A stretch of DNA of 64,000 bases, taken from contig CM097885.1 in assembly GCA_044892525.1 (NCBI GenBank), forward strand, positions 5,706,001 through 5,770,000, written 5' to 3'. Below the pieces are notes generated by a model. It saw nothing but the letters and a program-made list of their open reading frames with translations, did not search any database and had not been told where the DNA came from. Position 1 is the first letter of the stretch, and each line of letters opens with the position of its first letter. This document shows positions 17,696-63,138 of the stretch, piece after piece. This DNA comes from Schmidtea polychroa (Eukaryota). The translations under genes and the position numbers were made by a program.

Positions 17696-17789
17696 TTTGT
17701 TATAATGATCTTATAATTAAATAAATAATTGTATACAATTTTTCAACAATATTTAAAAAGACTTCAAATATTCTAAATTACTTTTCGAT

Positions 17790-21765: not shown

Positions 21766-23343
21766 TATATAGCAACAAAATAAGAGGTTTCTTAATAAAA
21801 AAACAGTAAATATATTTGCACTGATTCATTATAAAAAATCATCAAAAAAAATCAGAAAAAATTTCTACCTGTTTAGTAAAATTTACAAAGCAAATGGGAA
21901 ATCCGTCAAATTGACGCGTGCCGTAAACCTAGTGTTAACAATAATCTTTACAAAATTTTAAAATGTTATGAATTAATATTTTGATAACGAACTGTATTTT
22001 AATGCGCATTCTAATCAAGAATTTAAATAGAAAATTTATTTTTCACAATTTCAACACATTTTTTTACAATAGATTGCGCGCGCATACTCCTAGGGAGTCA
22101 TGCACGAACACAAAAAATATGATTATGAAAAAGCGAATAATGACAATTGTAATGTTTTGTTATATTTTATTTTTTTTGTTTATAACAAGGTTTTGTAACG
22201 TTTGGTTATTTTGTTCAGCGCGTGTCGCGTTTTGAAAAGATGAAAAACTATATAGCGATAGTTTACTATGGTACATTATCGCTATACGAAAATCGATCAC
22301 AAATAAAAAATTACAAATCAAACAATTCAAAAACATTAAAGTCTTAATTAGGCTGTCTAAAAGAAATTTATTAAATATATCCTTGTTGGCAAAACTTAAG
22401 AAAGACGATCTGAAAATAATAACCTATCTAAAAAGAAATTAAAGTTCGGAAATTTATTAAATTTATCAAATTTTTCAGAATATCAAAAGAAAATTCGAAG
22501 GCCGAGAAAGTTAACACTATTCAATCCTATTCACTAAAGTACTATTTATTGTAGTTGAATACAAGTTTTGTTGATCATTGTTTATTATTAGTTATTTTGA
22601 TTAGAGATTTGTAAACCCACGAATAAAAATACTTTTCGATAACATACACGCACCCCGATTGTCTCGCCAGATTTTTATTTATCGGATACTCTATCAGGTC
22701 CTACAATTCTTCAATTATACAATTATTAAAAAAGAAGAAGGAATTTTCAAAAATAGAATACCGCGTTATTCTCGGGGTGTGTTTATAGCAACAAAGATAT
22801 CCTTTATGTTGGGCTGAAACCGAGAACTGAGAGTTTGTTTTAATCGATCGAAAATACCTAACACAAAAACCTCAAAGTTGAAAAATTTATGACCAAGGTT
22901 TAATTTAAAATAAATGAAATAAATTACATCACACATTAAGAACCAATAAACCCCGTATAATAGAATAAGAGATAAATAAATTTAACAAAAAATTCAACAC
23001 TTAAAAATTTAAATAGAAAAATAATAAAATATAAAATAGAATTAGTTGAAAATTATTTAAACAATATAAAAATTAAATCGTCAAAAATAATAAAATTAGT
23101 TAGCATTATATAAATTGTAAAGTTTATAGAATTAAATGGTTATTTAACTTATTAAATTTAAAGAATAAAAATGTTTAAATTAATAAAAATTAATATAACT
23201 CAAATTATTTAAATTATAAAATTTATAAAATTAAAATTAATAAAAATTAAATAAGAAATTAATTAAATTTATTGAATTAAAACAAATAAACAATTGCACA
23301 CACTCATGCAGGTATGCAAGACTAATTAAAAATTTCTCGCACT

Positions 23344-23410
23344 CTGATTGGATAGAGTGGCAGCAAATGCATGAAAAATCAGTATAAATACTGATCACAA
23401 ATTCATTTAA
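23344..23410 (+). promoter_or_regulatory. LTR promoter: reverse CCAAT (CTGATTGG) + TATAAATA
   Basis: The same arrangement (CTGATTGG…TATATAAG) occurs at 42826-42862 in the related solo LTR. Confidence 0.6.
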
Positions 23411-23684
23411 GACCACTTTTTTTTCTAACATCAAAATTTAGTTGTAGCCAGTGAAGCTCTCAGTTTTCGATTTTATGCCCACGTGGATTTGGTAATTTAT
23501 TTTTTATTGTTGTAGTAATTTTATGAGATGATTAAATTTAATATGCAATAAAATTTTTAGTTAAATTTTCTTTTGTTATTTTCTTTTAATTGTTTAATTT
23601 CATTTAGTTGCAGGTATTAAATAATAATTTTTATTGTGTTCAATTTTTATACTAACTGATTACGAACGTTAGTACCGCTGAATT

Positions 23685-23808
23685 GAGATTCAGCATATCA
23701 TGGTTTGAGGTACCTTCGGGATGCTCAGACTGGTGGGTATGCTGGTTTTTCAATCGCGCAGCTGGATTGGGCCGGAATGTGGGGGCTTCCTCACGGGTCC
23801 TATCGCTG
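23685..23808 (+). ncRNA. Conserved structured RNA module A (two hairpins, cUUCGg loop); copies at 37608-37731 and 43297-43414
   Basis: Compensatory changes between the two LTR families. Confidence 0.65.
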
Positions 23809-24199
23809 GAAGTACTGTGGTCAAATGTAGGTTAGGACTGAGAATACAGGCAGATCCCTGCTCAAATTTCTTGAAGTATAACTTAAATATTATGGGAAGC
23901 GTGGATTAACTTGAAAATAAGGGCCAATCCCTGCTCAAATTTTTCAAAGGATAAGTTAGATATTGTAGGAAGTGTAGAACAATAATTATTAGCTGGAAAA
24001 TAAGGGCCGATCCCTGCTCAAATTTTTTTGCGAGATAGGTTAAATATTCATAAATATCAAGGAAAATACCTAGCAACATTTATTAATAGAAGAATAAGGG
24101 CGCATCCCTGCAAAAAATTTTGAAAAGAAATAATAGAAACCATCTAGGAATGAGGACCATAACCGAATGAAATAGAAAAGTAGAAATAGAAAGTGATCA

Positions 24200-24345
24200 A
24201 TGACGTAAGACCTTCTATCGGCCGTCTAGAACCCGAAGAGAAAATACAATGGGGAGTAGTTTTAGTAATGGAGCTCACCTGCTCATTGTTTTTTCACCTT
24301 TGTGTACAGTACCAACATGGTCGTCGCCATGGGTACACAAATGGT
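24200..24345 (+). ncRNA. Conserved structured RNA module B (three hairpins) near the LTR 3' end; copies at 38123-38268 and 45881-46020
   Basis: Stems covary between the two LTR families while internal loops are conserved. Confidence 0.65.
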
Positions 24346-24457
24346 TTAAATTGCAATAGTCATGGAGGTGCTTAGGAAAGAGTCGAACGATTATGATTAC
24401 CCCTAACGTATTTTAAATTGTAAAAAGGACACACCCCTAAGTAACCAACATGATTTT

Positions 24458-24475
24458 TGGGGGCTCAGCCGGGAT
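24458..24475 (+). promoter_or_regulatory. Primer-binding site, tRNA-Pro-like
   Basis: TGGGGGCTCAGCCGGGAT, 16/18 identical to the canonical tRNA-Pro PBS TGGGGGCTCGTCCGGGAT, 7 nt downstream of the LTR. Confidence 0.85.
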
Positions 24476-27400
24476 TCTACTTGAAAATACAAAACGTACA
24501 CAATGAATAGGAGAATGAACACGAATTTGAAGCAAAATGTAATGCAATGACAATATTGATTTGAAATTAATAAGATTCCAACAAATGAAAGTAAAATATA
24601 ATAATAATCATTTTCTAAAAAATTAATAGTAAATTTTACCAGTTTTAAGAAAAATTTGTTATGATTTACAAATTGGCGCTATCTTTATTATTTCTTTATA
24701 TTTATTTGATTTAAACTTATTATAATCAACATTCATATAATAATGATAATAATAATAATAATCACTACTCGGTCTGCAATAGTTATTTAAAAATATTTAT
24801 TCATCCAACATCTGTGCGAACAAATAAATACAAATTGAATAATCTGGCCATAGTGTTCATTTAACGTTATCAATACTATTGCACATAAAATGAATTAATC
24901 ATTAACTGCACAATTATAGAGCCAGATTACAATAATACTATTCATCGGATAAAATTTTTCTCCCAAAACGATAATGGAATATACAATTTGTACTACTTTT
25001 CAACTATTCAGTTTTTCCGAAAACTTTTTGATCTATTTACCGATCTATTATTCAAAGCATTCTATCTGACAAGTCTACACATGCTTCATGGTATTATAAC
25101 CAACTTTGGAGACACCGACATGTTCAGACAAGATTTTACCCATTTTCATAGTTTTAACTTTTTCTGAACTGGTTTCAACGAGGAAACGCAGTGATGCGCA
25201 ACGCGCAATTCAACTCAAGGGCGTGTTCAGACGCGCATTTGAGCAATATTGTATGGAAATTGTGTATCGGTGGTGAGGGTGAGTGGAGAATGATTGACGT
25301 AGGTACGGTACTTAAACGTTTTATGGTTGAGTGGAGATGGCGTTGTGAACGCTAATGATTTGAGAGTGTCAGTTGTGATGTGTGCTCGAAAGTTGGTGCG
25401 AGATTTGGATGCAATGTACAGGTATGGATGATTTACGTTTATGAAAGTCAGCCAATCAGAAACGCGATGTGTAACAATTATTTATTTCTTGATTTTAGGT
25501 TTCATTTCTTGTGGATTTGGATTTTTGCTGTAGTGTTCAGATGAAATTGAAATTTTATGAGATTTACAAAACGAAAATGGAATTTGTTTTTATTGATGTT
25601 AATATGTCTATCAATTGGAATAATGATTCGAATATTTACTTTTGAAAATGATGCTGGAAATTTGATTAGTTCTTCGATTCATGGTGATTTTCTCTCGGTT
25701 CGTTTCGTTGTTTTTGTCGATGTCGAATAAAACTTTGAGCGATTTTTCAGTACAGTATAGGTGGAATGGTTATATATATTTTTATTGATTTTATGGACTT
25801 TACTAATTAAATCAAGTATGTTTTATAAGTATTTTAAAATTCAGTTTTTAATAAAATTATGTATGGCTTTCTATTTTTGATTTAATTGATTAAAATAAAA
25901 CAGAAAATTGTCAAATTTGCAGGTATGGAAATGATTATTAATTATGTTACTATAGCATTTTGTACTTGTATATAAATTTATATGCACTTAAATAATTATT
26001 GTTAGTCGGTAATGGGATAATCAATGTATTAATAAATCATGTCCACTGGTCAGAACCATCAATTTTATTTGGTGTTATTAATCTCAGGATAGTGGTAATT
26101 TCAAAATTTTTTTTTATATATGCGTGAAATATTCCATTATAAATTCGTGTGTTGTATAAGTAGTGTTGATTTATGCGTCTTAGTGTTATTGACTTGACTC
26201 TATATGTTGGTCTGCCTTGTCTGTAATAAAATATCACAAGCGTCCTAAACAACTGTAGTGGAATTTCTATTCTAAAAATGTTAGTAAATTTTATTTATGG
26301 TGCCGATTATTGTATTCCGTTGGATTCTGAGAATGTGGCCTGATTCGTGATAATTATGGCCATCCGCCATGGATTTGATGATTCTTTCGTTGTCAGCAAT
26401 GGCCATTCCATATAGATTTTATAAAATGTCTCAAGTTTAAATGAAAAGCTTACACATTTGGCTACGAAATTCTCGAAACGAAATAGTCGATTCTGATGAG
26501 GTTACAAACATCCTCGTACAATTTTTGTTGTTAATTTTAAATTGGAAAATTTCAGCTGATTAAATACCCTTGTTGGATCAATATCCTGTTGCATGTGTCT
26601 TGCGAGCCGTGTTTGTGTGTGCTTGTTTATAATATATATATTATTAACATCGATTTTGTTTCCTATTGTTGTATAATATAATTGCCAATTTAATCTCACA
26701 TTGCTAATTCATACGCACATTTATTATAGGTAAACTAAGGTCTATATTATAAAAACCCAAATCAGTACCCATTCGATTGTGATCGGTTACCGGTCGGTGT
26801 GATTATTTACAAATTATGATGATAGTAAAGACGAAGGGCGGGTGAAATCGTACACCCGAAGAGCATGTAGATACACTGGTAAGACAAGACACTTGCAACT
26901 ATAAGTTTTTCCAAATATATTTCGGTTGGTGCGCATCTTGACAATGATTTTAATTGACATGCTTCTATACATCGAGTGCTCGTGATTGGAGCTTGATCGA
27001 ATTGTGCATTATTGACTCCTATAAAATCATGATATTGTGTTACAGGCTGTGGTTTGCAAATAAATCTTAGGCGTAATCAAAAATCAATTATCGTGTGTAT
27101 GGAATTAATAATCTGTTTCGAGGAAATTGCTAGCAGTGCATATAGGAATTTATTAGGAAATTATAAATCATACGAAGTAGCAAATCGTAATTAATTGGTT
27201 TCGACAAAATTACTCTATTTCGAAGATAGAATGTTCTTTGCTAAAAATGGTTGGATACGCCCAGAACAAAAGAATAATGTATGAATATCGTTACATCCGG
27301 ATTTCAGTAAATTCAAGGTTTGACAATAGGATAAGTAAGATAAGCTAATTTTATGAAAATAAATAAGTCTTCTCCTTGATAATGTGTCCTTGTTTGGTTG

Positions 27401-28732
27401 AATGGTTGAATGATGGGCCAGCAATTGGTTGAGGATTGGTTATGCAGGCTCTTGATAATATTTATGTCAATGAATTATTAAATGTTAATTGTTATTACGT
27501 TGATTAGTGAATGGATAAACCGAGGGAATGATAGCGGCTTTAGAAGGGGAACTTTTTGAGAATATACTGATAAATGAATATGTAATGGTATGAATGATTA
27601 TATGCAAATGATATATAAGAATGTATGGATTAGGGGGTTTAGGAAAAAGCAAGCTATATATGATTCTGGTATTGAGTTGTCGATACATACAGTGTATGAT
27701 AAGGACTATTTAAACCAATTATACTCTACAGGTAATACCTTCTACGCATACCAACCCAAGGGTAGAGTACCCAAGGATGTTAAATGCATCGGTAAAATGG
27801 AAAGACCAAACCATAAAAACGATTGAATAAACATTCAAATGAAAAATACGATAAAACTCGACAGATAACAAAGTACCAAACGATAAATAAAGCAAATGAT
27901 AACCATGTCTTAGCTTCTGCAAATGTGAATCTGAGACGAACAACATTATAGATAAAGAGATGAGTTTACCAGACGAAACCGAGCGAGTCAACAGATTCTA
28001 CTGAAAGTAAAAGAAAGTAAAGACAAGAAAAGACATCGAAACATCACGAATAGAAATGAACAAAATGAACAAAAGCGTTAAGTAAAAGAACAAAAACAAG
28101 AACTAAGCTTGCTGGTAACTCGAAAAATAAATCTGAACCAAAGACAATCGAGAATAACTGCGAAAAAATAAAATCACGGTACAAAAATAGAGCAAAAACA
28201 AATCGAAATAAAATCTTCGTGACAAAGGCACGAGAACTAAGTTAAAAGGCAGTGAAAAACTTTGCAAAATAGGCGAACATCACAGACACCCAGGGTACGT
28301 AGAAAATGAATTCTAAAACTTATGTAAAACGACTCGGGAGATTGACAAAGTATAGAGAGAAATCAATGAAAGTAAATATACAAGATACGAGAATAACATG
28401 ATAGGTATCAACGAAAATGATCCAGCGAAAGAAACCAGGAAGCCTAAGGTTAGCCAAAGTAATATGAATATACAAGACAGTTATACGTACGATGCTCATA
28501 TTAATAACCGGAAAGAAGTATGAAAAATTATCCAACGTCAACGATAGAGAATTGGAAACAATTAGAACCAGACGGGTGAAATATACAGTAAATGAAAGAG
28601 TACAGAACACTAAACTAAGAACAGTGGGGAGAGATCTAGCAAGTATCACGAATTACGAACCCACATACATAGAAAGGGTGATGACTATATATAGTGTGAA
28701 CAATGAATATATAAAGGTATATGATTATATAA

Positions 28733-28855
28733 ATATATATATATGTATATATATATATATATGTGTATATGTGTGTGTGTGTGTATATATGTATATATAT
28801 GTGTATATATATGTGTATATATGTATATATATGTGTATATATATATATATATATC
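28733..28855. repeat. (TA)/(TG) microsatellite
   Basis: Direct reading. Confidence 0.9.
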
Positions 28856-31472
28856 AGCGCGGTATAATTAGTATATAACTTCGGGAAGTAAAATGAAAAA
28901 AAATTCAGATAAAAGATTATGAATCAATATAGGTGAATTAATAGAATGAAACGGATCACAATGGAAATCAATCCCAATACCACCACAGGAGAAATATGGA
29001 AGCAGAAAAGCGTCATATTATCGTAAATAGCATTAGCTATACAGAAGTAAGGAATCTCATGGAGGAACAATCTAATCGAAAATTTGAACAATGAATTTGT
29101 TCGTGAGAGAATAATCAAGGCCAGAGAGGAAAAATTGAACTAAAGTGAAGAGAAATAGAACAACTCTAATGATAAAGTTAAATGCAAGAAATGAACTAAT
29201 AAGAATAGCTGGGGAAATCAAGGAGAGAAAGATATGATAAAAATGCAACGGATAATATCAGACGTTAAAAGGAAACGGGAAAAGGAAAATGCAGGGAGCT
29301 GAAGATGAAATACAAATAGCTGTAACAATTACAGCATTATATTCATGGAAAATAGTCATAAAATGAAGCATTCAATATACCGAGATGGAGGTGGAATGAG
29401 TAGAAGAACACTTGTACCGGTGGTTTCTGTTGGTAAAGGAGAAAACCAACGAACTATTAGCATGGTCATAGCATTGAAAAGAGACAGTAATGGCAGAACT
29501 GAGTGCCATAAAGAGGACTAATTGTATATAAATAATTGCATATATCGGTGTATACACCCCAACCAAAATGATATATAATAAAAGTAGAGGACCGATCACC
29601 ATAAACAAAGATAAAATAATGCGAAAAATCAAAAATATTAAAATCTACGCCTATTTAAGAGTAAGGAAAATCAATCAGAAAAAATGGACGTTTGGCAAAT
29701 ATTGTAGAGAGGACACGAGAACAAAATACTGAGAACCGAGAGAACACAAGATAATAAATAAATTAAATAATGAATGTCGGGGACGACATTTGGCGAAGAC
29801 GCGGAGGAAAAATGAGATCAAACTAAGATAACAACAAACGGGAGATCAAGATGAAAGTCAAAATGGACATGAGCAGTAATAGGAACAATCGGAAAAAAGT
29901 ATACAAAAACATGATTGACAGAAAATGAAGAGCACACATATAACAAAATAGAATATGAACAAATAAACACAATAAAAATGACAAGGAAAACACAGAACGA
30001 AATGAACAAACATGAAACAACAAATAACAAATTCACAGAAGGAAAGCAAGGCCAAAGACATTTGAACGAAAAGGCAAAACAGCGAGAAACGACAAATATA
30101 AAATGAAACATGATACAGAGAAACAGAACAAAAAATTGAAAGCTTAACATCACGACACGGCCAATTAAAATAACAATAGATGCTAACAAAAATGAGATCA
30201 ATTAGAAATATCGAACAAAAGTTTTAATTAGGAAAAACGAACATACTGCCAACTTTTACTATGGAGCAAAAAGTTACAATAATGAAAAACGAACGGACTG
30301 TCTACTTTTATTACGAACTATAAAGTTACAATTGTGGGAATTTCAATGATAAATTTGAATAAATTCAGAAATGATGGAAGCAATAATATCAACCACTCCA
30401 GGAACAGCTAGGGAGAAATGCGTACAGATGTAGATATCCAGATATAGATGGATATAGGTATATGAATATACGGTTATGGATAAGGGTATATGTATAAGTA
30501 TATGAGTGTATATGTAGACATAGATAAACAATTAAATGAGATAATGAAAATAAATGACCAATCAAAGTTACGCGCCAAAAGTAAAATAACAAATAGACGC
30601 GGAAATAAGTTAAAAACATAAAATATAGGGAGTGGAACAAAGAGGCCCATAAACAGAAAAACAACAAACAAATTTTGAAAACGTAAAATATACGAAATGA
30701 GAAACATTATGACGGGGAAATCAGTGAGGTAACATAAAAAATCAAAGATAAGGAAAATACACTAATACGGAAGCGTGATAAATTACAAAATTGAGCAGGG
30801 ATGGTTAATAAATAAACCATTGACGAATAGAAGGGTAACGAATAAAATGGATAAACAAATATTAACGAGTGATGCGAGAGGGATCTGCCTGAGGAAATAG
30901 TGAGCATATTAACGAGAAACAAGTCAACTAAAGCGGTAAGAGTAAAAGCGATAGCAATAAGACGTTAACTAGACAAGAGACGTGGACATATTTAGAATAA
31001 TGAAGAAGGACCAAGAGTAATTGAGATAAGTAGATTAAGAGCACGACGTAAAAATGAGAATAAAGTCCTACGAAAATTGAGAGCAAATGAATAAGGAAAA
31101 AATTTTTCTGTTAGGATTTAGGAAATCCACAACCTATGAGCTACGCTCAGCGTAGTACGGATAAGGCCCAGGAAAGTACCAACTGTCCTGACGAAAGATG
31201 TGGAACAGGGCCCATCGCATATACTGGAACATCTCTGCGTGTGACTGATCACCACACGATCGGAGATCGACCAGTGCGAGTGTTTCGCATCCGGAGTCAG
31301 GAGAGTGGGGAAAACCTGGAAGAGTAGTAAAAAGAAGCATGTAGGAGAAATAAAAAGAAGACCAAGTAAATGGGAAAAGAGAGAGCGAAGTAAAGAGAAA
31401 CAATTAGAGCTTAAAGACTAAATTGATAGATAACCGGTAGGCAGAATGATAGGGACAAGGACAGTCAAAGGA

Positions 31473-32155
31473 ATGCGAATAATAGATGCGAATAATAGAT
31501 GCGAATAATAGATGCGAATAATAGATGCGAATAATAGATGCGAATAATAGATGCGAATAATAGATGCGAATAATAGATGCGAATAATAGATGCGAATAAT
31601 AGATGCGAATAATAGATGCGAATAATAGATGCGAATAATAGATGCGAATAATAGATGCGAATAATAGATGCGAATAATAGATGCGAATAATAGATGCGAA
31701 TAATAGATGCGAATAATAGATGCGAATAATAGATGCGAATAATAGATGCGAATACTAGATGCGAATAATAGATGCGAATAATAGATGCGAATAATAGATG
31801 CGAATAATAGATGCGAATAATAGATGCGAATAATAGATGCGAATAATAGATGCGAATAATAGATGCGAATAATAGATGCGAATAATAGATGCGAATAATA
31901 GATGCGAATAATAGATGCGAATAATAGATGCGAATAATAGATGCGAATAATAGATGCGAATAATAGATGCGAATAATAGATGCGAATAATAGATGCGAAT
32001 AATAGATGCGAATAATAGATGCGAATAATAGATGCGAATAATAGATGCGAATAATAGATGCGAATACTAGATGCGAATAATAGATGCGAATAATAGATGC
32101 GAATAATAGATGCGAATAATAGATGCAAATAATAGATGCGAATAAGAGATACGAA
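31473..32155. repeat. 13-bp tandem array (ATGCGAATAATAG), ~52 copies
   Basis: Direct reading; almost invariant. Confidence 0.97.
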
Positions 32156-33138
32156 TATAAATGAGAATAATGGCTACGAATAGGAACGGAAATAACAGAC
32201 GTAAATATAGACGAGAATGTAAAAGGAAAGATAAACGAGAATATAGATGAGTACCTGGAAAGAAACATAGACGCGAATATAAACGAGAATAATAACTACG
32301 AATAATAAACGGAAATAACAGACGTAAATATAGATGAAAAGGTAAAAGGAAAGATAAACGAGAATATAGATGAGTACCTAGAAAGAAACATAGACGGGAC
32401 TATAAATGAGAATACAGCCGAAGTCATTGACAGATATATAACTGAAAATAAATAAGATCGTGAAGGAAAAAGACGAAAAACGAATTGAAAATAGACAACC
32501 GTGTAGGAGAATAGATGAGAATATAGAATGAATAATGGAGAACCGAGTCAAGAATAATAAATAAGTCTAAAAATTGGTAACGATAATGGAAAAAGAGAGA
32601 TATAAAGGACGACCAATAAGGTAAACGGAGGAAATTATAAAAATCGGAAACAAACATGAACAGAATAAAGACTACATCAATGAAGAAAACTAAGATAGAA
32701 ACAAGAATACAAGTAATGTAAGTCAATAGATAGAGATAAGCCAAGGAAAAAAGACAGTTAAAGTAGAGAAAACTATAGAAACGAAGAAAAGGAGTGTGAA
32801 TTAAATAAGAAGGATCGAAAAAATTACGTAGGAATTTGAGAACCAATGTGTAAACAAAACTAACGACGAAATGAATATTAAGATATGCCGGCACCCAAAG
32901 AAACCAAAGTAAAAATATTGCAATTGCACTATATAATATATATATTACAATTTATAAATATAATAAACGATAGGGAGAAGTGATATTTTTCTATTCAGGT
33001 AAATCAATCAATCAAGCCAACAGCCAAGTAACAGCAACCAACTAGAAGTTAGTGTCAAACAATTAAGCCAAGTTCGGAAATATTGAACCAATAACAAAGC
33101 ATACCAGATCAAAACAGTTAATAATAGAACCAAGTTTA

Positions 33139-35700
33139 TTGAAAGAAGAAGAATTAAAAGTTGCAAAGAAAGGAAGACGAACTATTAAACCCACGCAAGC
33201 ACAAGAAATCGAAAAGCAAAATCAAAAAGACATTTCAAAGACCCAAGGTCGATCCATAAAAGGAAGCAGTGAAAAGGATTTCGAAAACAATAGGCCAAGA
33301 AGCGTAATACGCGTATCAGAACCTCAGGAAGGAAAAACTCTATCTGAAAACAGAAATAATAAAAGTGCCATAAACCTAATAAAAGAAAAGACAAACGGAA
33401 AAAGAATACAATTAGAGATGGTAGATACAACAGCCCAAATGGAAGCGATCAACAAGAGACTCAGTGAAATGGAGATACCCAATTTCCAGGGAAAATATAA
33501 TGGCGAAAAATACGACGGAAAACCGAACAAACTATCAAACTTTATCCAACATTTTGAATCTTATTGCGATGCTCTAAAATGGACAAACGAAATGATAGTG
33601 AGAAGACTCCCACTATATCTAGCAGATGACGCGTTTAATTGGTACGTCGGAATAAAAGAGTGTACAACCCCACTAAAAACCTGGAAAGAAATTAAGGAAG
33701 CTCTGATAAAAACATTTGGAGAAGCAAAAGATGCACAATACAAATTTCTAGAATTCTTCAATCGAGGACAAGCAGTGAATGAATCAAATATACTTTACGC
33801 CAGCGCACTAAGACGTCTAGCCAAACCGCTGTTCAGTGAAAAGGATATGGAAACACAACTAGTAACCCAATTTGTAAAAGGATTGCAACGAGATGACATT
33901 AAAGGTGTAGTCGGATGCAAAATCTGCAAGACGCTGGACGAAGCAGTAGAGGCAGCGAATGTAAGCGAAATGTACACCAAAGTAACACAACCACCAAGTA
34001 GGAGGCACATCGCAGATAATCAACCCCAACACCACAGACAGTGGAGTCATAACAACAATAATCAAAGAAACGATAATGACAATGAAAGCAAGAGGTTGAA
34101 TAATAGAAACATCGAAAAATTTTGTGATGACTGCAAGAGACAAGGACACTGGCTCGAGGAATGTCATGGACAAAGAAGATGTTGGAATTGCGGTAAGAAA
34201 GGACATACCGCAGTGAGATGTGGAGTATCCAAAAAATGTTTCTCGTGCGGACAAGGAGACCATCTAGCAGTTGCATGTACGAATAAAAGAAACCAACAAC
34301 GGGGTGACAATAGGGATACGTCAACAAAGCAACTATCTGAAATGCAAAATCAAATAACAATTCTCACAGGACTGTGCAGTAACATGATCGATTATCAGTT
34401 TCAAGCGGAAGGAAAACAACAATCAAGAATAAATGTATTACAATGTGTGGGAGGCACATTACAAATTCAAAATATCCAAACAAAACAACAACGAGAATGG
34501 AATACCTTACAGATCGCGGAAGCACGAGAAGCGGAAGAAAGATGGAGTAAACGAAAAGAACCTCAGGCAAGAAGAGAAGAAAAATATTGGAGAACGAGAA
34601 AGGAAGAACTTTTAAAAATGGATATAATGAGACTAACCACCAACGACAACCAGAAGGAAAAGATAGAAAGAATGTGGGAAAGAGAACAAAAAAGAGTAAT
34701 ACAAATCAATATGATGAGAATGATAACGAGCAACGAAATAGATTTACAAAAAATTCCGGACTCAAGGATCGAAAGCGAAATAATTGAAAAACTGGAACAG
34801 GTAATATTAGACCATCAAAACATCAAACCATTTGAGGACAATCAGAGAGATTATACCGGCATCGATAGTCAGGTTGGAATTGCAGTAATCCCGGAAAAGC
34901 GCGAATCGGAGAATGGCGAAAATCACGAAAAACGAAATAATGAAAAAACGCAAGAAAAGTACCATGACATAAACACGTTAAAAACTGAAAGCGAGTGCGA
35001 ACCAGATATCGAATGGGACGCAAGTACAAACAATTACGGGAACGAATACCAACCACAAGGACATAATGAGCGCTATCGGTTCTTCGATAAGACGCATGGG
35101 AATTGTGAGAAAAATGAGCACGGAAAAAATAAATGTCGCCGCATAAAAAGGTGTTACGAATGTAAAAGAACTGGACATTTGGTCAATAACTGTCCGAATG
35201 GGACCAATCCAGTGAGAGATCAGTCACGAGAATACGCCACAGAACAAAACAATAAAGACTATGTCGAAAACAGAATTTGTCAGCCAGGGATACGAAAACA
35301 TCAATCTCCAATGTTAATAAAACAACAGTCGACAAATGTACAGAGACGGACAAATGACGTGAAGGAACAGGTGAAACCCAACGCATACGAGGAACTGAGG
35401 AGACAATGTGTGGAACAGTGCAGGTTAATAATGGAACTGGTTGTAAAAGAAACGAGACAGGATGAATTGATAATGATATGGAGAAAAGTCGCAGAAAACA
35501 AAACAAGAGAAAATGAGGTACTTAAGACAACGATACTCCGACTAAAAGAAGAAGCAAGGTCAGCCGAATTAAGAATCAATGAAATAACGGGTAATCGAAA
35601 AAAATGCAAAGATGGGGCAGAAGAGACACAAATGGTGACGGCCAAGGAAAAGAAGAAGGGTAGTCCAAAGGATGTGGCGGAAATTAAAGAGGAAGCGTAG
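33139..35700 (+). CDS. gag: Retrotransposon Gag with multiple CCHC zinc knuckles and C-terminal coiled-coil extension (first ATG 33418)
   Basis: Capsid-like region KYDG…FIQHFESYC…W…LPLYLADDAFNWY…TWKEIKEALIKTF…Q…ES…QFVKGL. Knuckles CDDCKRQGHWLEEC, CWNCGKKGHTAVRC, CFSCGQGDHLAVAC and CYECKRTGHLVNNC. Confidence 0.92.
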   Translation: MKEEELKVAKKGRRTIKPTQAQEIEKQNQKDISKTQGRSIKGSSEKDFENNRPRSVIRVSEPQEGKTLSENRNNKSAINLIKEKTNGKRIQLEMVDTTAQMEAINKRLSEMEIPNFQGKYNGEKYDGKPNKLSNFIQHFESYCDALKWTNEMIVRRLPLYLADDAFNWYVGIKECTTPLKTWKEIKEALIKTFGEAKDAQYKFLEFFNRGQAVNESNILYASALRRLAKPLFSEKDMETQLVTQFVKGLQRDDIKGVVGCKICKTLDEAVEAANVSEMYTKVTQPPSRRHIADNQPQHHRQWSHNNNNQRNDNDNESKRLNNRNIEKFCDDCKRQGHWLEECHGQRRCWNCGKKGHTAVRCGVSKKCFSCGQGDHLAVACTNKRNQQRGDNRDTSTKQLSEMQNQITILTGLCSNMIDYQFQAEGKQQSRINVLQCVGGTLQIQNIQTKQQREWNTLQIAEAREAEERWSKRKEPQARREEKYWRTRKEELLKMDIMRLTTNDNQKEKIERMWEREQKRVIQINMMRMITSNEIDLQKIPDSRIESEIIEKLEQVILDHQNIKPFEDNQRDYTGIDSQVGIAVIPEKRESENGENHEKRNNEKTQEKYHDINTLKTESECEPDIEWDASTNNYGNEYQPQGHNERYRFFDKTHGNCEKNEHGKNKCRRIKRCYECKRTGHLVNNCPNGTNPVRDQSREYATEQNNKDYVENRICQPGIRKHQSPMLIKQQSTNVQRRTNDVKEQVKPNAYEELRRQCVEQCRLIMELVVKETRQDELIMIWRKVAENKTRENEVLKTTILRLKEEARSAELRINEITGNRKKCKDGAEETQMVTAKEKKKGSPKDVAEIKEEA

Positions 35701-36729
35701 ATGAAAATAGTAAAAAGGAAGTGAACATATGTAAAAATTGATGTATAAATAGCAAATTAAATGTACTAGATGTATAGGTATAAATTGATGTATAATGTGG
35801 CAAAAGATCGATGTATAAATAGAAATGGATCAAGTAATCAGTTGAAAAAATACTAAATTTGAACCCTTACAATGGTAAAGGAGAACAGAGGCTCAAATGA
35901 GAAGAAAGAATATAAATCCAGAAGAAAGATAAAGATGCAAACCTAGAAAGAATGAGTTAAACGAATATTTAAAAATAATACCTAATTTGGAACCCCTAAA
36001 CAAAGAACGGTAAAAGATCCTGATAAATGAGACGAAAGTCACAGACCCAGTGACATTAGAAACTTAATCAAATCAAGCGAACTTAGACCAAAATCGAAAA
36101 TAATTTGAGTTACCCACTAGAGGAAGAAAATCCCTTAATAAGAACAATACCGTAAACAAAAACCACCGGGAAAAACCAAAAGAAAAATCTATGTGTCAAA
36201 TCACCCTTTTAAACAAAAATCCCGAAAACCCTGGAGCAAGGTCTGTCAACTACCATCAAATGATCCAGAAAACCGGAATCCCAGCCTAAAAATTCAAAGA
36301 GAATCAGGGAAAAACAGTCAAATCCTGATAGAGAGAATCCTATGATCTTCAGTAAATATTACGACCTAACTATGAAAATCAACAGCAGGAACCAAACAGG
36401 CCTACACAACCCAGACGAAAGATGGAAAACCGAGCCCAGAAACGAGAGAAACAACCAACTGATGAATTTATCCAGAAATAAAACTTTTGCATATGACTCG
36501 TACTTGAGTTTGGACACTGTATCAGTATGTATGTGTATTATGACCAGTCACTGTATGTGGCAACTGCTTGAATTTGAGCTTAGACCTTTTTCTGCTAATT
36601 GAATTCTAACATGTCTTAAACTATTATAGTATGTTTATAGGTTAATGGGAATGTAATAGACTATGACCTGGGAAATTCATATGTCTAACAGAATTGCGGG
36701 ACGCAATTTTAACGGGTCCCGGAGTGATT

Positions 36730-38373
36730 TGTTGGGCTGAAACCGAGAACTGAGAGTTTGTTTTAATCGATCGAAAATACCTAACACAAAAACCGCAAAG
36801 TTGAAAAATTTATGACCAAGGTTTAATTTAAAATAAATGAAATAAATTACATCACACATTAAGAACCAATAAACCCCGTATAATAGAATAAGAGATAAAT
36901 AAATTTAACAAAAAATTCAACACTTAAAAATTTAAATAGAAAAATAATAAAATATAAAATAGAATTAGTTGAAAATTATTTAAACAATATAAAAATTAAA
37001 TCGTCAAAAATAATAAAATTAGTTAGCATTATATAAATTGTAAAGTTTATAGAATTAAATGGTTATTTAACTTATTAAATTTAAAGAATAAAAATGTTTA
37101 AATTAATAAAAATTAATATAACTCAAATTATTTAAATTATAAAATTTATAAAATTAAAATTAATAAAAATTAAATAAGAAATTAATTAAATTTATTGAAT
37201 TAAAACAAATAAACAATTGCACACACTCATGCAGGTATGCAAGACTAATTAAAAATTTCTCGCACTCTGATTGGATAGAGTGGCAGCAAATGCATGAAAA
37301 ATCAGTATAAATACTGATCACAAATTCATTTAAGACCACTTTTTTTTCTAACATCAAAATTTAGTTGTAGCCAGTGAAGCTCTCAGTTTTCGATTTTATG
37401 CCCACGTGGATTTGGTAATTTATTTTTTATTGTTGTAGTAATTTTATGAGATGATTAAATTTAATATGCAATAAAATTTTTAGTTAAATTTTCTTTTGTT
37501 ATTTTCTTTTAATTGTTTAATTTCATTTAGTTGCAGGTATTAAATAATAATTTTTATTGTGTTCAATTTTTATACTAACTGATTACGAACGTTAGTACCG
37601 CTGAATTGAGATTCAGCATATCATGGTTTGAGGTACCTTCGGGATGCTCAGACTGGTGGGTATGCTGGTTTTTCAATCGCGCAGCTGGATTGGGCCGGAA
37701 TGTGGGGGCTTCCTCACGGGTCCTATCGCTGGAAGTACTGTGGTCAAATGTAGGTTAGGACTGAGAATACAGGCAGATCCCTGCTCAAATTTCTTGAAGT
37801 ATAACTTAAATATTATGGGAAGCGTGGATTAACTTGAAAATAAGGGCCAATCCCTGCTCAAATTTTTCAAAGGATAAGTTAGATATTGTAGGAAGTGTAG
37901 AACAATAATTATTAGCTGGAAAATAAGGGCCGATCCCTGCTCAAATTTTTTTGCGAGATAGGTTAAATATTCATAAATATCAAGGAAAATACCTAGCAAC
38001 ATTTATTAATAGAAGAATAAGGGCGCATCCCTGCAAAAAATTTTGAAAAGAAATAATAGAAACCATCTAGGAATGAGGACCATAACCGAATGAAATAGAA
38101 AAGTAGAAATAGAAAGTGATCAATGACGTAAGACCTTCTATCGGCCGTCTAGAACCCGAAGAGAAAATACAATGGGGAGTAGTTTTAGTAATGGAGCTCA
38201 CCTGCTCATTGTTTTTTCACCTTTGTGTACAGTACCAACATGGTCGTCGCCATGGGTACACAAATGGTTTAAATTGCAATAGTCATGGAGGTGCTTAGGA
38301 AAGAGTCGAACGATTATGATTACCCCTAACGTATTTTAAATTGTAAAAAGGACACACCCCTAAGTAACCAACA
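36730..38373 (+). repeat. 3' LTR
   Basis: Direct repeat of 22807-24450, followed by TSD TTTA. Confidence 0.95.
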
Positions 38374-40152
38374 TTTATAACTAATTTATAAATTTATAAT
38401 ATTTGTCGATGAATTTAGATATCAACAACTACTGATCTGGCACATGGCCTATTTTAATACAACAATAACGAATTATCAAATACAAATTCTTGTTACAGTT
38501 TTCTCCAGTCCCGGCCCTAGAGATTATGGAATTGTGATGCAAAGATTTTTTCGGCGACCTTAATGAACATTTTAATATTACAATAATAACTTGAGCGCAT
38601 ATTGCAACCCTCCTGGAGGAATAGCACATTGGAATACCACTTGGAATTTACAACTACTTGACTGCTGTTTCTGGTTTCAATGATCGGTGGATTTCATCTA
38701 GTTGCTTTCTTAGATTTGTCTGGGGTTTATTCGATAGCTTTAATTGGTTTTAAATCGGATTCTTTGATAACTTCGTAACTCACCTTGAATTTCGTTTTAA
38801 TTCTATTTCTTATTTTCTTTACAATTTCTGTTTCCTTTTCACTATACGAATTCTATCTCTTTTCCACTTTTCAAATTGTGTCCCTTAGAAGTTCTCTTCT
38901 CTAAAAAATCCTGTTTTCATTCAAGTTGCATTTCTTTTTATAGTCAATAATCTAATGGTCCTTAATGATATTGACTTTTGTTTAGTTTTACCCTTCCCGT
39001 ACATCCCTTTTGGCTATCTACAGTTCTTTTATTACCTCACAGCTTTCGAGATATGTAATATTTAGAGGACACAATCTCTAATAAAAATGACCTTGTAGTA
39101 TTTCATTATTTGATTGTTTGATTTTTTTCCAATTCTTTGCCATTTCTCTTTTGTTTTCTCAATGCTTCAACTCGCTTCTACTTTCCAGGGTTATGGAGTA
39201 ACACACCTTTTATTTTATACATTTTCCCCAATAATTTTATTCATTTTGACAATTAATTGTTTATTTTTTTTATTATTTTTATCCTCAACCAATTTTACCA
39301 ATAGTTACTTGCAAAACCGAATTTGAACAAGGCAATACACGCCTCACCTGAGTGAAAATGAATGTAAATAAAATTTACAACCGATATTGGCCCTATTGCT
39401 AATTTTTCTGTCCATACACTATGACCTTAATACTTGTTTTTTTGAACTTTAGGTTTTCAGGATCAAATATATTTTTAACTCTATTATTCATTTTCCTTCA
39501 ATAGTCTATCAATTTTTAAGGACTAACTCAACTTTTCAACAAAATCAATTAAAAATATTTATGAGCAATTTAACAATAAAATTAAAATTTTATCGGTTGT
39601 TTTAATATTGCTTGAAACAATAATTTATTTAAATTTGAATTTGTATGCTAATTTGCCATTTGAGTTTTAACCGTTTTTTCTATATACTATTCAAATCTTT
39701 CATAATTTTTAACACATTTTAATAAAGATTTCACACACAAATACATTTTGAATGTATTAATTAAAACTAATAAAAATTTATAAGATATTTTTGCAAACGA
39801 TGTCAAAGTTTGCACGATCACATGTGAGGCACGATGGCACTTGCCACGCTTTTGATTCAAACAACAAAGAGCACCATCGCGCTCTTCACTATAATGGTTA
39901 ATAAAAAAATTTCAAATTGGTTAGAGTTCAACTTAAATGTTCCATTTAACTTATAAACGAGGAGTACTGTAATTTTTAGGATATGTGACATGGGGGGTCC
40001 AGAATACAAAAAAGGTTGAAGCTGGTTTTCTGCTTTATCAAAATATTTAGATAATTTTTCCCACTTTTCAAAGTTTTAATAATAAAAAATTATAATAGTT
40101 TCATTTAATCAGCGACATTTTATTAAAATTATTTAAATAACGTGACTGCCAT

Positions 40153-41314
40153 TCAAAGGTTAGGGTAACTAGCCATGGTAGCTATTCCACATTGATTATC
40201 CTTATCTTTTGACATCTTTATATATCCTCTAAGTCCCCAGGAATCTCCCCAACTATTTTTCACTAGCCAATAATTTTCTCCTGAATCTTCATCGACCCCA
40301 TAACCAACTGCTAAGACGCCATGATCAAGCTGAGTTGATGAACAGGTTTCTTCATCATAAACTCCTCCCTATAAAAAAACAGAGGCGAAAAAAATAAATT
40401 GTTTAACTAACATTGTAAAACTGGAAACTAGGATTACTGGCATCAATTGCAACCGATATTGGCCCTACGGTTGCTAATTTTTCTGCCAAATCTTCTTCAC
40501 TTCCATGATCAATATCGGTAAAGTTTTTGCACCGTGTTATTACTTTGCGTTTGGAATATTGGCAGCTTCCATCCTGTAAATATATACAGGCGATATAGGC
40601 ATTGTATGGGATAACAAGTGATAATACCAACCATGGCTGTGTAAGGATAAACGCTTTCCTTTTCGATTCCATATTTCATAATATATTGAAAGGCTTGATC
40701 CATCAAACCACCATTGCAGCCTTCATTACCAAAACTTTGACTACAATCAACGAGTTGCTGTTCAGAAAAGCTGACTAATCTTTTTGTTTTCTTAAAATAT
40801 TGTCCTTCCATTGAGCCTGTCGTGGAAAATGCCCAACAAGATCCACATTGTTGCTTTAATTATAATTTGTTATTACTCACCTACTTTTAACCTTTTTTAC
40901 TTGATTTTTGACATTTGTGACGTAACCTTTTTTCACCCAGTTTACACTGTTGGGCAAATCCAATGACTTTCGTTTCTTGTCAGCAGATTTCCAGTCAACG
41001 GATTTCACGATTGGCCGATATTTTGTATAGATATCTAAAAATTCCTGATGAGTTAGGTCGGTAAACTGATTGACTCCCAATGTGTATTTATGTCTCCCAA
41101 GGTTGTATTCAATATTGTGTCTTTGAATGAATTGCAGATTTTCCTCCCAAATTTGCCTTCGAGCAAACTCATCCTCATCATTATAGGATTTGGCAAACTT
41201 AGTTTTGTATTCACTCCACAGCTCATCGAATCTTTGAAGGAAAAGCCCTGACCATGGTATGGATTCAACAAAACACGGGGTGATTATTAATATTATTCTC
41301 ACAAAGTCCATCAT
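40153..41314 (-). CDS. CTSL: Cathepsin L-like cysteine protease (exons 41314-40901, 40853-40632, 40573-40412, 40368-40153)
   Basis: Signal peptide; ERFNIN-type ([19 protein letters not shown]) and GVNQFTD propeptide motifs; [20 protein letters not shown] and YWLVKNSWG. Short canonical introns. Confidence 0.95.
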
Positions 41315-42501
41315 CGCTAATATTGTCAGAGACAACGCCTTTTATATTCATCGTTGTTCACACGAAAGTCATGTGCCTCGAATCCGTGAATTTATTCAAC
41401 GAGTCTAAGACTTTTCATAGAATAAATAATTAGTCAATTCCTAGAATTAATTTTGAAATGACGGATTATTATAATTAGGTTTAATTACATTTTTAAATGC
41501 GCAACCATTTATCGACTAAGACCCCTTTCACCCTTAAATATGAAAAGAATAAAATAAAAATAAAAATTTTAATAAATTACTACAATGGCCTAGGAGTCAG
41601 AATTTGTAATAGTCCTACCAGATTTTGTTATTGACAAAACAATATTGGGACAATGATAATACACTTTCGGCAAGAATTAGCTCTAAATCTGACTTCTCGT
41701 GTTCCGTAGAAAAATCAAAGAAGCCCAACAGAATAGAATTTATTAATTAGTTATCAAGAACATAAGGATTTCGCTCCATCAGTGACCATTTTGCAATTCT
41801 GACTTTCGACTATCGGTTTGAGTTTTTTCTCTTTGTCTTCCACTAAAAGTGACAAATTTTCTATATTTTTGTCTATTTGTATGGACATATTCGTCCTCCG
41901 GGACCAATAAGCAGTTATTGAAACCATCCTCCCTAAATGATTTATGAAATTAATCAACGTGTCAACTCTGAGATTTTCACAATGATTGATTGGTTTTTTA
42001 TTAAAAAATTAGTTTTTTTTGTTCTACCCTCCATAGGGACTTCTTGTACTTTTAAATTTGTCTTAAATATTTTATTTGCCATCAGTTATCACGTTTTCTG
42101 TCAGAAAAATATTAATATGCAGTTTCTTGAATATTTCCCTAAATTTTTATTAGTTTTGTCTCTTCAATTTTCCATTTATTTTGTGCATTTTTGTGTAACC
42201 CCAATAGTGTTACAAGTTTTAAAAACAATTTTTATTCATCTAGATTTTAAAACCAATACAGTGTAACTTCTATATAGGGGGCACGAATTTTCATACATGC
42301 CCTAATTATAGAGTGTGCCCCACTCATGGAATTCTTTTTAAAAACATATCTAATGATATCAAAAATTAAATGTGCCAATAATTAATACAAGACAATATTT
42401 AAACTAAGATTTTTATTAATATTATTTTAATGCAGATAAACAAATGATTAACTGAATTAAAATAAATAATTATTATTAATTTTAGAGAAAATTGAATAAA
42501 T

Positions 42502-45500
42502 TGTTGGGCTGAGTCGAAAACATAATCGTCGAAAATTAAGACAGATAGGGCGTGAACAAAATAAAATAAGACAACAAATTTTAAAACAAATAAGTCAAGA
42601 CATAAAAGAAACAATAAAATAAGATATAAGGATTAAAACAAAAAATAAAAATGAGAAAATTAAAAATAAGGTAATAAGATAACGAATAAGATAACGAAAA
42701 ATGCAACAAATAATATGGAATTTAAGAAATAAATAAAAGATATAATAAAAATAGGAAAAATAAGTAAAATATCCAAAGAAATAGGAAAAAACAAATTAAT
42801 TTAAAAAATTAAGCGGTACTAAATTCTGATTGGTCCACATAAACGAAAAATTCATATATAAGGAAACAGTAAACTCATTATAGTTACTGTTAAAAACCAA
42901 ACATTTACAGTTACAGGTACTCAACAATCCAGACAATCAAACCAAATTAGACTACTAGAAAGCAGACGACTATTAGGGACAGTTCTATATTCGATTCAGA
43001 ACCAGCACGATTAAATTAGTTTTCGACTCAGCTTTGGAAACACTGATTAAGACCGTTCGGTAAGGATGTGTTTTATATATTTTAGATTGCATAAACGATT
43101 TATAATGTTAAACATTTATTATATTAATTGAAAAGGTCGTAATAAATTTCTTCATTTGATCTCGTTTTTCCATAATAATGTATTTTAATGATTAAATCTA
43201 AACGTGAACGGTAAAGAAACATTTATATTATGCATTTGTATTTGGAGTTCTTATATTTTTATCATGATAATTTGACAATGAGTAACGTGGAGTTGAGAAG
43301 ATTCATATCATGGTGTGAGGAGCCTTCGGGAGCTCAGCCGATGGGTATGAATCTTTTCAATCATGCAGCTGACGTGGGCCGTAATGTGGGGGCTTCCTCA
43401 CGGGTCCGTCGCTGAAGGTTATAAAATGCTGCAAGGAATAGTTAGAGGTAAAGTAGAAAATGATGTAACTCGGGGATTAACAGTGATTGAGGTGGCTACA
43501 AACTTTCATCTGCAAGAGTTTCATAAATCCCAACTACCACCTTTGAAGATCTTCGTTTTGTCCTTACTAACCAGCCTAAATCGTTTATTCCCATCGACAG
43601 ACCTACTATCATCTACATGCAAATCATTTCTTCCGTCAAAAGCTATATCACATTTCATCTTAGAGGATAAATTAAGTGTTAGTGCGCTCACTCTGACATC
43701 GTACAACAACGTAGAAAACATACCAGAAGAATTTTAAACGTATTTAATTGAAAAAATAACATTTCGAAGAATCCTTTATTTCCAGTAAAAACAATTTTTG
43801 AATTACCCATAGCTGGAGCCTGGAGATTGCTCCCTGGAATGCACCCTTGATAGAGGTCGCCATGACGAGGATCGTATAAATACCCACCGAACGAGATATT
43901 TCAAGATATGGACGAGAGAGGCTGTACGACCTAAAATCCAATTTTTTTCGGTTGATGAGAAATAAACAGTAGATCATATAGGAACCAAATGATTAATTTC
44001 CAAATATTGAGATAACCGGAGTTCTGCGGTTAAGATAAAGTATGAATATGCACGGTGAAAATGTGTAGCCTGACCATGTGCAGATAGTAAATTCCGATTG
44101 AGTAATCACCTTCGGTTAGAGTCGCATGCACACAAGTGAAAATTTACCTCCGGTTTAATCGATGTTACACTCGCTCAGTCAGCACGGCAGCCGTGGATTC
44201 ACTAACTAGTATCAGTAGTGAAAAAATAAATCCAGTTACACGCACATAGTAAATCTGAATTTTCTGGAAAATCCTACTGGCAATTGAATTGACTAGGAGA
44301 CCTGTAGCAGAGGGTTTATACTATGCGTAACGCGCATCAAGTCTGAAGATTAGATTTGCCTAAATTATTACTAACGCAATTAATCAAATTGAGTAAAGTC
44401 AGTTAGGCTTTACATTTTTGTGATCGATAACATTTAGTATTAAATTAGAATATTATCTCTTTAAGCGGATTTAAAATTACTTAATTAATTCATCATTTCT
44501 GTATGTTTTACATGCATTAACTAATCACTGAATTAAAGTTGAACGTGGTTGCGACCCCACATTTATAAGTTTTCTTGGTCAGCAATAAATTACTATATTA
44601 GACTAAAAAGGGGGGGGGGAATTCACTCGCCAACCCCTACATACATAAACCATCCACCGATTTAATATCAATCAACAGAGGATGCTTCCGGCCCGCCATT
44701 CTGTTTTCTTCTCGTCAATCCTTTGAACATCATGAACGTAATGTATGGAATTCATAAAATAAATAAATAATTACGCCACACTGAGGGTTTAGTAGAGTTA
44801 ACCAATTTTCGTTTTACCTTATTTATTCTTTCCCCATTACAACTATCGAAATGTTGCCAAGCACGAAGTCTTCTATCAAACCCTGCTTCTCCTGCGCAGA
44901 CAAAAACACTATAATCCGAGATTTACAGGCCCAGATCGGTCGATATAAAAAGAAAATCGACGATCTGGAAGGTACATGGTTTAGCCCAGTACAAATGAAA
45001 GAGGTACGGAAGAAGCTGTACCGTAGTGAGCATTGTCGTGATGCCCTAATAAATGAGAGCAGATCTCAGCGCAGTTTGATCAAAGAGCAGTCAGAAGCTC
45101 TGCATAAAGTTTATATACAAGCAGCCACTACCCGGAAAATTGTAAGTATTCCCATTAACGAAGCCGACAATATCTTCCCCGTCCACCACGATCCTTCGTT
45201 CAATTTACCACCTTCTTCCAAGAAGTCATGTCGTGGATGCGTAGAGGCCAACCTCTCTCCCAGGCCGACCGAAGTAGTTACCACTGGAGTCAGTAAAGGG
45301 TTTTCAACATCCGCGTCTACATCTATAGTGCCATCGAATGTACCAAGCATTCCGAAAACCAAGCGTTGACAATTGTCTAGAGCAGAACGTAAAAAGCGGC
45401 AACGTGATCGAGCGGTCGCCAAACATCTTCGGACAACCCGACTAATCCCGACCGCCTTCCTGTTACGATCGATCTAACGGTAGGGAATCCAGGGCGATTC

Positions 45501-46149
45501 ATCTCCGCCGCTGGTGTGACTTGGGAGGAAAACGCCTCCGAGTTTTTCGACTTGGATGAATTGTTAGCAGACACCGGATGGGAGAAATGAAAACCTCCTC
45601 GTAGAGCAATCGAGCGGTATAGTAATGGTCAAACTGAACTATCATGGTCTAACTCTTTCCTTACACCGTTTGTCTATGAAATTGTATATGTTATATGTCA
45701 CTCATCCGTATATTGTATTTCGATGACAAAATAAAACAGTTTTTGGTTATCAAGCTCTTCGTTTTTGTAGTAGTTCGGAGTAGCTTTTATAGATCAAGTA
45801 GAGATTTTGCAGTTCGAAGAGTAATAGTCAATTTGCATCTAATTCGGGGTCGAAGGAAAGTGAGGTTTGATGATGCGATTATGACGTAAGTCCTTCTATC
45901 GGCAGTCAGGGAAAGGAAGTCGAGGCCTCAGTAAGGAGTAGTCCTAAGGCAGGGGCGCACCTGCTTACTGGAGTCTCGCCGCATAGCACATTTCCAACGT
46001 GAAGCAATTCACGGGTGCTACGTTGGAGTGTAGGTTGTGCAGGGTTCTGCTCAGGGTTGACATGGGTATAATTAATGTAAGTGAAATGGACACCCATCTC
46101 CTTTACAAGCGCGTGAGTGGGTTGAAGTCAACCGAGCACTACCCCAGCA
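42502..46149 (+). mobile_element. Large (3.65-kb) solo LTR related to the 22807-38373 element
   Basis: Starts TGTTGGGCTGA (same as the 1644-bp LTR) and ends TACCCCAGCA; TSD AAAT; shares promoter layout and RNA modules A and B. Confidence 0.85.
44851..45590 (+). pseudogene. LTR-embedded accessory ORF (CxxC + coiled coil, basic patch, acidic tail), with a stop at 45367 and a frameshift at ~45422
   Basis: A 172-aa ORF continues after TGA as QLSRAERKKRQRDR and, in a shifted frame, as …EFFDLDELLADTGWEK*. Confidence 0.5.

Positions 46150-52774: not shown

Positions 52775-63138
<10,364 letters not shown>

Follow-up and report, generated by a model that had tools for sequence, protein, structure and literature searches.

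A covarying RNA module at the 3′ end of LTRs in Burro-like Gypsy elements and its candidate contacts with a tRNA-Pro primer

Retroelements of the window and the place of the module

The window, by which we mean the whole 64,000-nucleotide stretch analyzed here, belongs to an AT-rich eukaryotic genome of 781 Mb and contains, on the + strand, long terminal repeats (LTRs) of two families. Family 2 is represented by a solo LTR (42502-46149; 3,648 nt) with TG...CA ends and a 4-nt target-site duplication, which passes directly into host DNA and has no primer-binding site (PBS) behind it; none of the 20 family-2 copies that were fetched has a PBS either. The segment under study (45881-46149) ends this solo LTR, and its placement “next to the PBS” in the initial annotation was mistaken. 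Family 1 is present as a young element of 15.6 kb with a 4-nt target duplication, whose 5′ LTR (22807-24450; 1,644 nt) and 3′ LTR (36730-38373) show a single difference; its 5′ LTR is followed by a 7-nt spacer (24451-24457) and an 18-nt PBS (24458-24475), the only PBS within the window, which is the exact complement of the 3′ end of the genome’s tRNA-Pro. Further downstream, an acceptor-like site (AG at 32997-32998) and a Gag-like frame together span 32980-35700, the frame itself (33067-35700) encoding a protein with CCHC knuckles, P0001, that is 32% alike over 442 aa to P0003; the latter matches PF03732 and P0001 itself does not. No pol-sized open reading frame (ORF) was present among the 10 ORFs listed for this element, four of which were scanned for domains.

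Several smaller features accompany these elements. Family-1 elements carry ~8.5 kb of A-rich non-coding DNA ahead of gag (24476-33000 in the window, and likewise in L001-L030), which in the window includes a long 13-nt tandem repeat (31470-32140), and the sequence directly after the PBS differs among family-1 copies with near-identical LTRs. Just before the family-1 3′ LTR (36690-36729) there is a small GC-rich inverted repeat in place of a clear polypurine tract, and the starts of both LTRs (22807-22818 and 42502-42513) look like part of the tRNA-Pro acceptor stem, the reverse complement of a stretch of the PBS. Outside the elements, a 28-nt satellite of ~150 or more copies with a strong GC skew occupies 53730-58600, and the stretches 6350-8219, 16676-17251, 17186-17710, and 40148-41341 contain hAT transposase remnants, a proteasome-subunit-like frame that overlaps a reverse-transcriptase fragment on the opposite strand, and a cathepsin-like gene with exons that a contig of run X7 shows joined.

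Within the solo LTR, a TATA-like box (42855), the first donor-like GT (43060-43061), and an AATAAA (43141; whole span 42855-43146) would mark the promoter and the R region, and the family-1 LTR has its counterparts of these three signals, in matching order, at 23383, 23492, and 23547. Because this order stands early in both window LTRs, we infer that the module at the LTR 3′ end lies in U5 and, together with the PBS, inside the intron of spliced mRNAs. Upstream of that module in the solo LTR lies module A (43281-43414), which is 79% identical to 23671-23808 and is a swappable cassette, with family-1 LTRs (L014, L032, L056) bearing at least three different structured sequences in its place, one type of which ends with a donor-like site. 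In family 1, the stretch separating modules A and B contains a repeated 73-nt unit (23839-24048), and the distance between the two modules varies from copy to copy by about one unit. By eye, modules A and B could pair over a long range; this pairing was rejected for want of support, because many family-1 LTRs carry other cassettes in place of module A.

The module at the LTR end, module B, recurs in the family-1 5′ LTR (24197-24353) and, as an identical third copy, in the family-1 3′ LTR (38120-38276), while a decayed fourth copy on the − strand (16178-16279; E 1.2e-5) has kept only stems P3/P4, with new stem letters; this last segment reads as a decayed LTR end that retains P3/P4 and a short terminal stem. 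Genome-wide, the 26-nt 5′ motif of the module, with ≤2 mismatches allowed, has 3,755 matches against none for its reversed control; a pattern that leaves out family 1 has 692, and a loop pattern has 3,467. The module is found at the 3′ end of LTRs, both in elements of autonomous size with LTR pairs ~26 kb apart and in the Gag-only family 1, at a similar position near the LTR end. No Rfam covariance model matched at gathering score (best E 3.6, outside the module), the viral contigs searched held no match to it, and the two pattern matches among metagenome contigs were both due to chance, so that these contigs contributed no copies from other species; the literature searched on burro and planarian retrotransposons, and on LTR U5 structure with covariation, held no description of the module.

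By their described features, rather than by sequence identity to published elements, the hosts of the module appear to be Burro-like, and this likeness points to a planarian as the probable host organism. Burro/GYPSM1 are giant Gypsy-like LTR elements of planarians with an internal region of up to ~25 kb, a total length of >30 kb, and, as hallmarks, a polyprotein with integrase and ankyrin parts, a retrotrans_gag Gag with 2-3 CCHC knuckles, and RING/BIR/MATH cargo (PMC6431247). Here, module-bearing LTR pairs lie 26.3 and 26.8 kb apart, and a 1.5-kb sample (L146) from inside one pair (C1:260940/287257) contains a 500-aa open frame with an integrase-like stretch (integrase core E 3e-4, below the curated cut-off) followed by ankyrin repeats (E 4e-14). 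The likeness extends to a RING accessory ORF, which follows the PBS in L078 and is flanked by an acceptor-like site immediately ahead of the ATG and by a terminal AATAAA, and to a Gag with three CCHC knuckles. In contrast to Burro/GYPSM1, the window holds only a solo LTR and the 15.6-kb Gag-only derivative, and the account of Burro/GYPSM1 in the part of that publication drawn on here is given without an LTR RNA structure or an LTR-borne ORF (PMC6431247).

A covarying RNA fold

Structurally, the proximal half of the module (45883-46023, + strand) consists of three domains, and its counterpart in family 1 is 24202-24340. What the initial annotation had described is in place, namely a common 5′ motif, both swapped stems, and loops that stay fixed. 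Domain 1 (45883-45907) corresponds to the shared 5′ motif, which is in addition itself a hairpin, P1/P1b, with a covarying pair at alignment columns 15-35 (E 0.02) and a donor-like GTAAGT at 45886-45891. In domain 2 (45924-45975), the long helix P2, which covaries, leads to a 1x1 mismatch; beyond this come two pairs that are fixed, a 1x3 loop (U/CAC), and the hairpin P2c, which caps the domain and has a variable loop. The mismatch is G.G in 33 of the 37 sequence clusters described below, G.A in two, and C.A in two, and is never Watson-Crick. In loop size (3x1, asymmetric) and in the CAC of its longer strand, this domain fits the C-loop RNA motif as given for the C-50 construct (PMC2441787); the closing pairs differ from those of C-50. 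Domain 3 (45981-46023) is formed by P3, a 5-nt bulge (45989-45993), a CC/GG step, an AA bulge (45996-45997), and P4, with P3 reaching about eight pairs by anchored counting over 33 rows, the four damaged rows being left out. The third stem of the earlier description is paired one register away from its plain reading, with the 5-nt and AA bulges flanking CC/GG.

For comparative analysis, 140 segments were extracted from 144 loci (those in which the loop failed to match the pattern used for extraction were dropped), clustered at 90% into 37 representatives, and aligned by sequence only, including four with damaged P3/P4. RNAalifold returned a covariation term of −5.3 kcal/mol and two-sided changes in 16 of 22 pairs. 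In a 37-pair structure scored over the 37 clusters, and partly derived from these same sequences, 92.6% of 1,343 cells pair, as compared with 77.2% in shuffles (none of 500 reaching the observed value) and 32-44% in slid controls, and 25 of the 37 pairs show two-sided changes. Under a tree-aware null, in which columns were simulated independently along the tree, P1, P2, P2c, P3, and P4 were each matched in 0 of 100 simulations, with pairs 65-98, 63-100, and 15-35 having E-values of up to 0.02. The claim that stems change in pairs across family copies is thus borne out, and strongly supports a real RNA structure. At pairs that are not mainly G-U, G-U outnumbers A-C by 88 to 29, favoring the + strand, and this asymmetry together with the covariation supports the earlier proposal of a structured U5/leader RNA domain.

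Folding of single sequences gave a weak signal (z −2.0 and −1.9; core z −1.1), and a pseudoknot joining the domain-1 loop to the purine run that lies behind showed no covariation. The fixed loops of the earlier description were seen, but their invariance is partly circular, because L111-L144 and the extracted segments were picked by patterns that required internal-loop letters; the variable stems were unconstrained by these selection patterns. The invariant loop was also considered as an antisense splice donor or U1 mimic and rejected, the donor-tolerated position never being A in 37 rows that are themselves partly pattern-selected. Structured 5′ leaders are expected in LTR elements, and what sets this one apart is how well it is resolved, with a covarying fold across dozens of divergent Gypsy families, a candidate primer-contact box, and a helix that would be specific to the 5′ LTR.

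The terminal hairpin and the tRNA-Pro primer

The distal half of the module (46033-46149), which was absent from the initial description, is where the earlier suggestion of a role in reverse-transcription initiation finds support from sequence. Domain 4 is a terminal U5 hairpin (46042-46146, + strand; arms 46042-46061 and 46127-46146) that reaches to within 3 nt of the LTR end, and it forms in 21 of 24 U5 rows as compared with 148 of 480 shuffles (two of 26 rows, lacking a clear LTR end, were left out). Ahead of its foot stands a 7-nt motif (46033-46039) that, in 5′ LTRs, is complementary to the end of the LTR together with the spacer that precedes the PBS, a partner that is absent in the solo LTR; in the family-1 5′ LTR the corresponding features are the spacer-pairing motif at 24358-24364, the terminal stem at 24367-24446, and the D-arm box, described below, at 24397-24411. 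All seven pairs of this spacer helix are available in all but one of the 25 rows that bear a PBS (24 distinct loci; 21 of the rows from family 1), and a two-sided change from C-G to U-A separates family 1 from family 2b, a comparison of two lineages only and with no shuffle control. Judged by these complementarities, the spacer helix would be confined to 5′ LTRs.

The loop of domain 4 contains a pyrimidine box (46094-46108) complementary to nt 8-23 of tRNA-Pro, that is, to its D arm; in the solo LTR the box is partly decayed, and its best helix, of 9 bp, lies off the D arm. On the primer side, the genome contains 2,178 tRNA-Pro-like matches whose 3′ end is exactly complementary to the PBS, and tRNA-Pro(UGG) genes repeated in tandem every 475 nt were noted at C1:130901010-130951920 (L145). 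In 21 long U5 rows, the interval 62-32 nt before the LTR end can form 12.0 bp with the tRNA as compared with 9.4 ± 0.6 bp for shuffled tRNA (0/100), this interval having been picked after the motif was seen and being the only one of seven to reach significance (the other six gave 18-68 of 100). At a fixed register, 277 of 360 positions pair over 24 related rows, as compared with 238 ± 13.5 in shuffles (0/300). The positions facing tRNA guanines are only C or U in 24/24 rows at four of five sites and in 23/24 at the fifth, although C/U changes are the commonest substitutions anyway. A loose duplex-energy test separated the real U5 from shuffled U5 (0/20) and did not separate real from shuffled tRNA (16/40).

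Primer-template contacts beyond the PBS are described for Ty1, Ty3, and HIV-1 (PMC5371799, PMC3592414, PMC11181671), with the Ty1 Box 2.1 contact formed in vitro and, in the portion of the source drawn on, given as unconfirmed in particles (PMC3592414). As in Ty1 (boxes 0, 1, and 2.1), Ty3 (a bipartite PBS with a D-arm contact), and HIV-1 (the PAS and A-rich loop), the module offers a short box outside the PBS that is complementary to another arm of the primer tRNA. The module differs from these systems in that the primer is tRNA-Pro, its PBS is a full 18 nt, the box for the D arm sits in a hairpin loop 40-55 nt upstream of the LTR end, and a 7-nt spacer would close a helix across the LTR border. 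In two family-2b loci (L078, L130), the bases directly after the PBS can also pair with nt 9-15 of tRNA-Pro, a pairing that is absent in the other three loci folded.

Candidate roles of the module

Functionally, we posit that the module serves, in cis, as an RNA platform at the 5′ end of genomic RNA that has not been spliced, both for reverse-transcription initiation and for protein docking, an explanation to which, taken whole, we give an even chance of being right; the part of it in which domain 4 positions the primer, taken alone, is probable. In this mechanism, tRNA-Pro would anneal to the PBS, its freed D arm would pair with the box in the loop of domain 4, and the base of this terminal U5 hairpin would pair with the 7-nt spacer to bring a helix up against the PBS, the D-arm contact and the spacer helix together positioning the primer for reverse-transcription initiation. 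Stems P1-P4 would be scaffold only, presenting fixed, non-canonical loops on which an element-encoded protein may dock, the simplest candidate being Gag/nucleocapsid; the protein binding proposed in the initial annotation is plausible for this proximal half. Docking could then mark the intron-retaining RNA for packaging and primer loading, and the platform would be kept as well by Gag-only parasites of Burro-like elements. If so, the module shows what thousands of non-autonomous copies must keep in order to be mobilized.

Four other readings have to be weighed against this platform. Conservation at the level of DNA, through CRE-like or integrase-related sites, or by neutral shared ancestry, could be suggested by the presence of TGACGTAA in both window families and by LTR ends being substrates of integrase; however, TGACGT is intact in only 11 of 37, leaving the CRE-like alternative raised with the initial annotation unsupported, and both the two-sided stem changes and the G-U excess need a single-stranded fold, such that this reading is already largely refuted and is the least probable of those considered. 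We regard a catalytic RNA or other autonomous RNA device as very improbable: ribozymes typically combine bulges and loops that do not vary with stems that swap freely, and the lack of an Rfam match leaves room for a new class, but that same lack, the want of a supported pseudoknot, and the failure to find by eye a hammerhead, HDV-like, or hairpin core kept across families all speak against it, as does the fact that cleavage between cap and PBS would destroy the template. Domain 1 might instead be a U1-binding splice donor whose exposure is regulated by the fold, and which either suppresses the poly(A) site that follows the LTR ORF or is spliced to acceptors farther downstream. GTRAG stands at the module start in 32 of the 37 clusters, and an AATAAA after the LTR ORF (45730-45735, + strand) precedes the donor-like site by 156 nt in the solo LTR, by 156-161 nt across families 2 and 2b, and by less than 200 nt in 13 of 20 ORF-bearing rows. 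In HIV-1 a donor follows the poly(A) signal by 195 nt and in foamy virus RNA structure regulates U1 access, systems that, in the account drawn on (PMC3694450), likewise have a donor-like site in a hairpin near the LTR poly(A) signal. The site here is donor-like by sequence, but the variant counts do not favor its use as a donor: genome-wide, variants number 108 at +1, 24 at +2, 22 at +3 (only 6 to G, and thus no excess of the tolerated GTGAG), 33 at +4, and 53 at +5. G+1 is the most variable position, a weak argument because it lies in a CpG, and four +1-variant pairs are found 14-21 kb apart on one strand, as if they were both LTRs of one element (putatively). Family 1, moreover, has no AATAAA nearby, 7 of the 20 ORF-bearing rows have none within 700 nt, and P2-P4 would be left unexplained; the joints listed in contigs of four RNA runs, none of which falls at the donor-like site, are uninformative. 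Because the variant counts are not donor-like, we rank U1 control third and consider it unlikely; the splicing control proposed in the initial annotation finds a donor-like GTAAG but gains no support from these counts.

The remaining alternative, and the main rival to the platform, assigns P2-P4 to a response element, of the kind of Rev/RRE or Rex/RxRE, for an Arg-rich protein encoded in the LTR: a spliced early protein would bind the loops and export or stabilize intron-containing RNA, with the distal half still serving primer binding. The candidate protein is encoded by an LTR-borne ORF that in the solo LTR (44851-45369, + strand) shows a CxxC motif, long helices, and the start of an Arg-rich stretch, and is interrupted by an in-frame stop (45367-45369) and further breaks. 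In several other families it is 247-252 aa long and precedes the module by ~300-450 nt, and an acceptor-like signal usually stands immediately ahead of its ATG; the ORF was found in 20 of the distinct loci compared, and a separate comparison covered 13 distinct translations. Family 1 keeps the module without the ORF, as expected for a system acting in trans. The predicted structure has long helices (14-93), which might supply the oligomerization part of a Rev-type protein, and an Arg-rich helix (174-194) but is a poor model (pLDDT 47). No Pfam family and no word-search match were found for the protein, and its Atlas scores were under 0.9; a profile search did find homologues in 13 other predicted proteins, of which 11 were aligned, keeping the helices and reaching 10-12 Arg in 17 residues in three. 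In addition, the conserved G.G mismatch recalls RRE stem IIB (PMC6649712), and a RING ORF behind the PBS that brings an acceptor and an AATAAA of its own gives the elements the look of complex retroelements with multiple splicing. Against this reading, a class-1a export-signal pattern after the basic stretch is absent from both of the ORFs tested from the window genome and, among the homologues with the stretch in their TE-derived part, occurs there only in P0005 and P0014, the Arg-rich stretch may be a mere nuclear-localization signal, and the acidic, aromatic tail would suit a transcription activator. Overall, we hold the Rev-like reading to be possible but doubtful.

As characterized in the sources drawn on (PMC10746203, PMC6649712), Rev/RRE, HTLV-1 Rex/RxRE, and HERV-K Rec/RcRE likewise combine a structured RNA bearing a purine mismatch and bulges with a small element protein that has an Arg-rich stretch and helices, in the present case apparently made from a spliced mRNA. 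The present case differs from them in showing no sequence or family similarity, in the export signal not found in the two window-genome ORFs, and in its host, a Gypsy-type retrotransposon. Tentatively, and on sequence grounds, Burro-like Gypsy elements may be complex retroelements with their own Rev/RRE-like switch and a D-arm primer clamp, of which Gag-only parasites would retain the RNA while borrowing the protein. If true, this would be an independently evolved Rev-like system outside retroviruses, and, were the LTR protein the ligand, Rev-like regulation would have arisen in a retrotransposon lineage, with a bearing on the evolution of complex retroviruses. The literature searched on Rev-like systems concerned, by title, retroviruses only, and the original Burro paper or Repbase report, which lay outside the search, may describe the LTR ORF. 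The homologues of the ORF product (P0004-P0016) are mostly gene models fused to unrelated host domains, and are probably annotation chimeras over solo LTRs.
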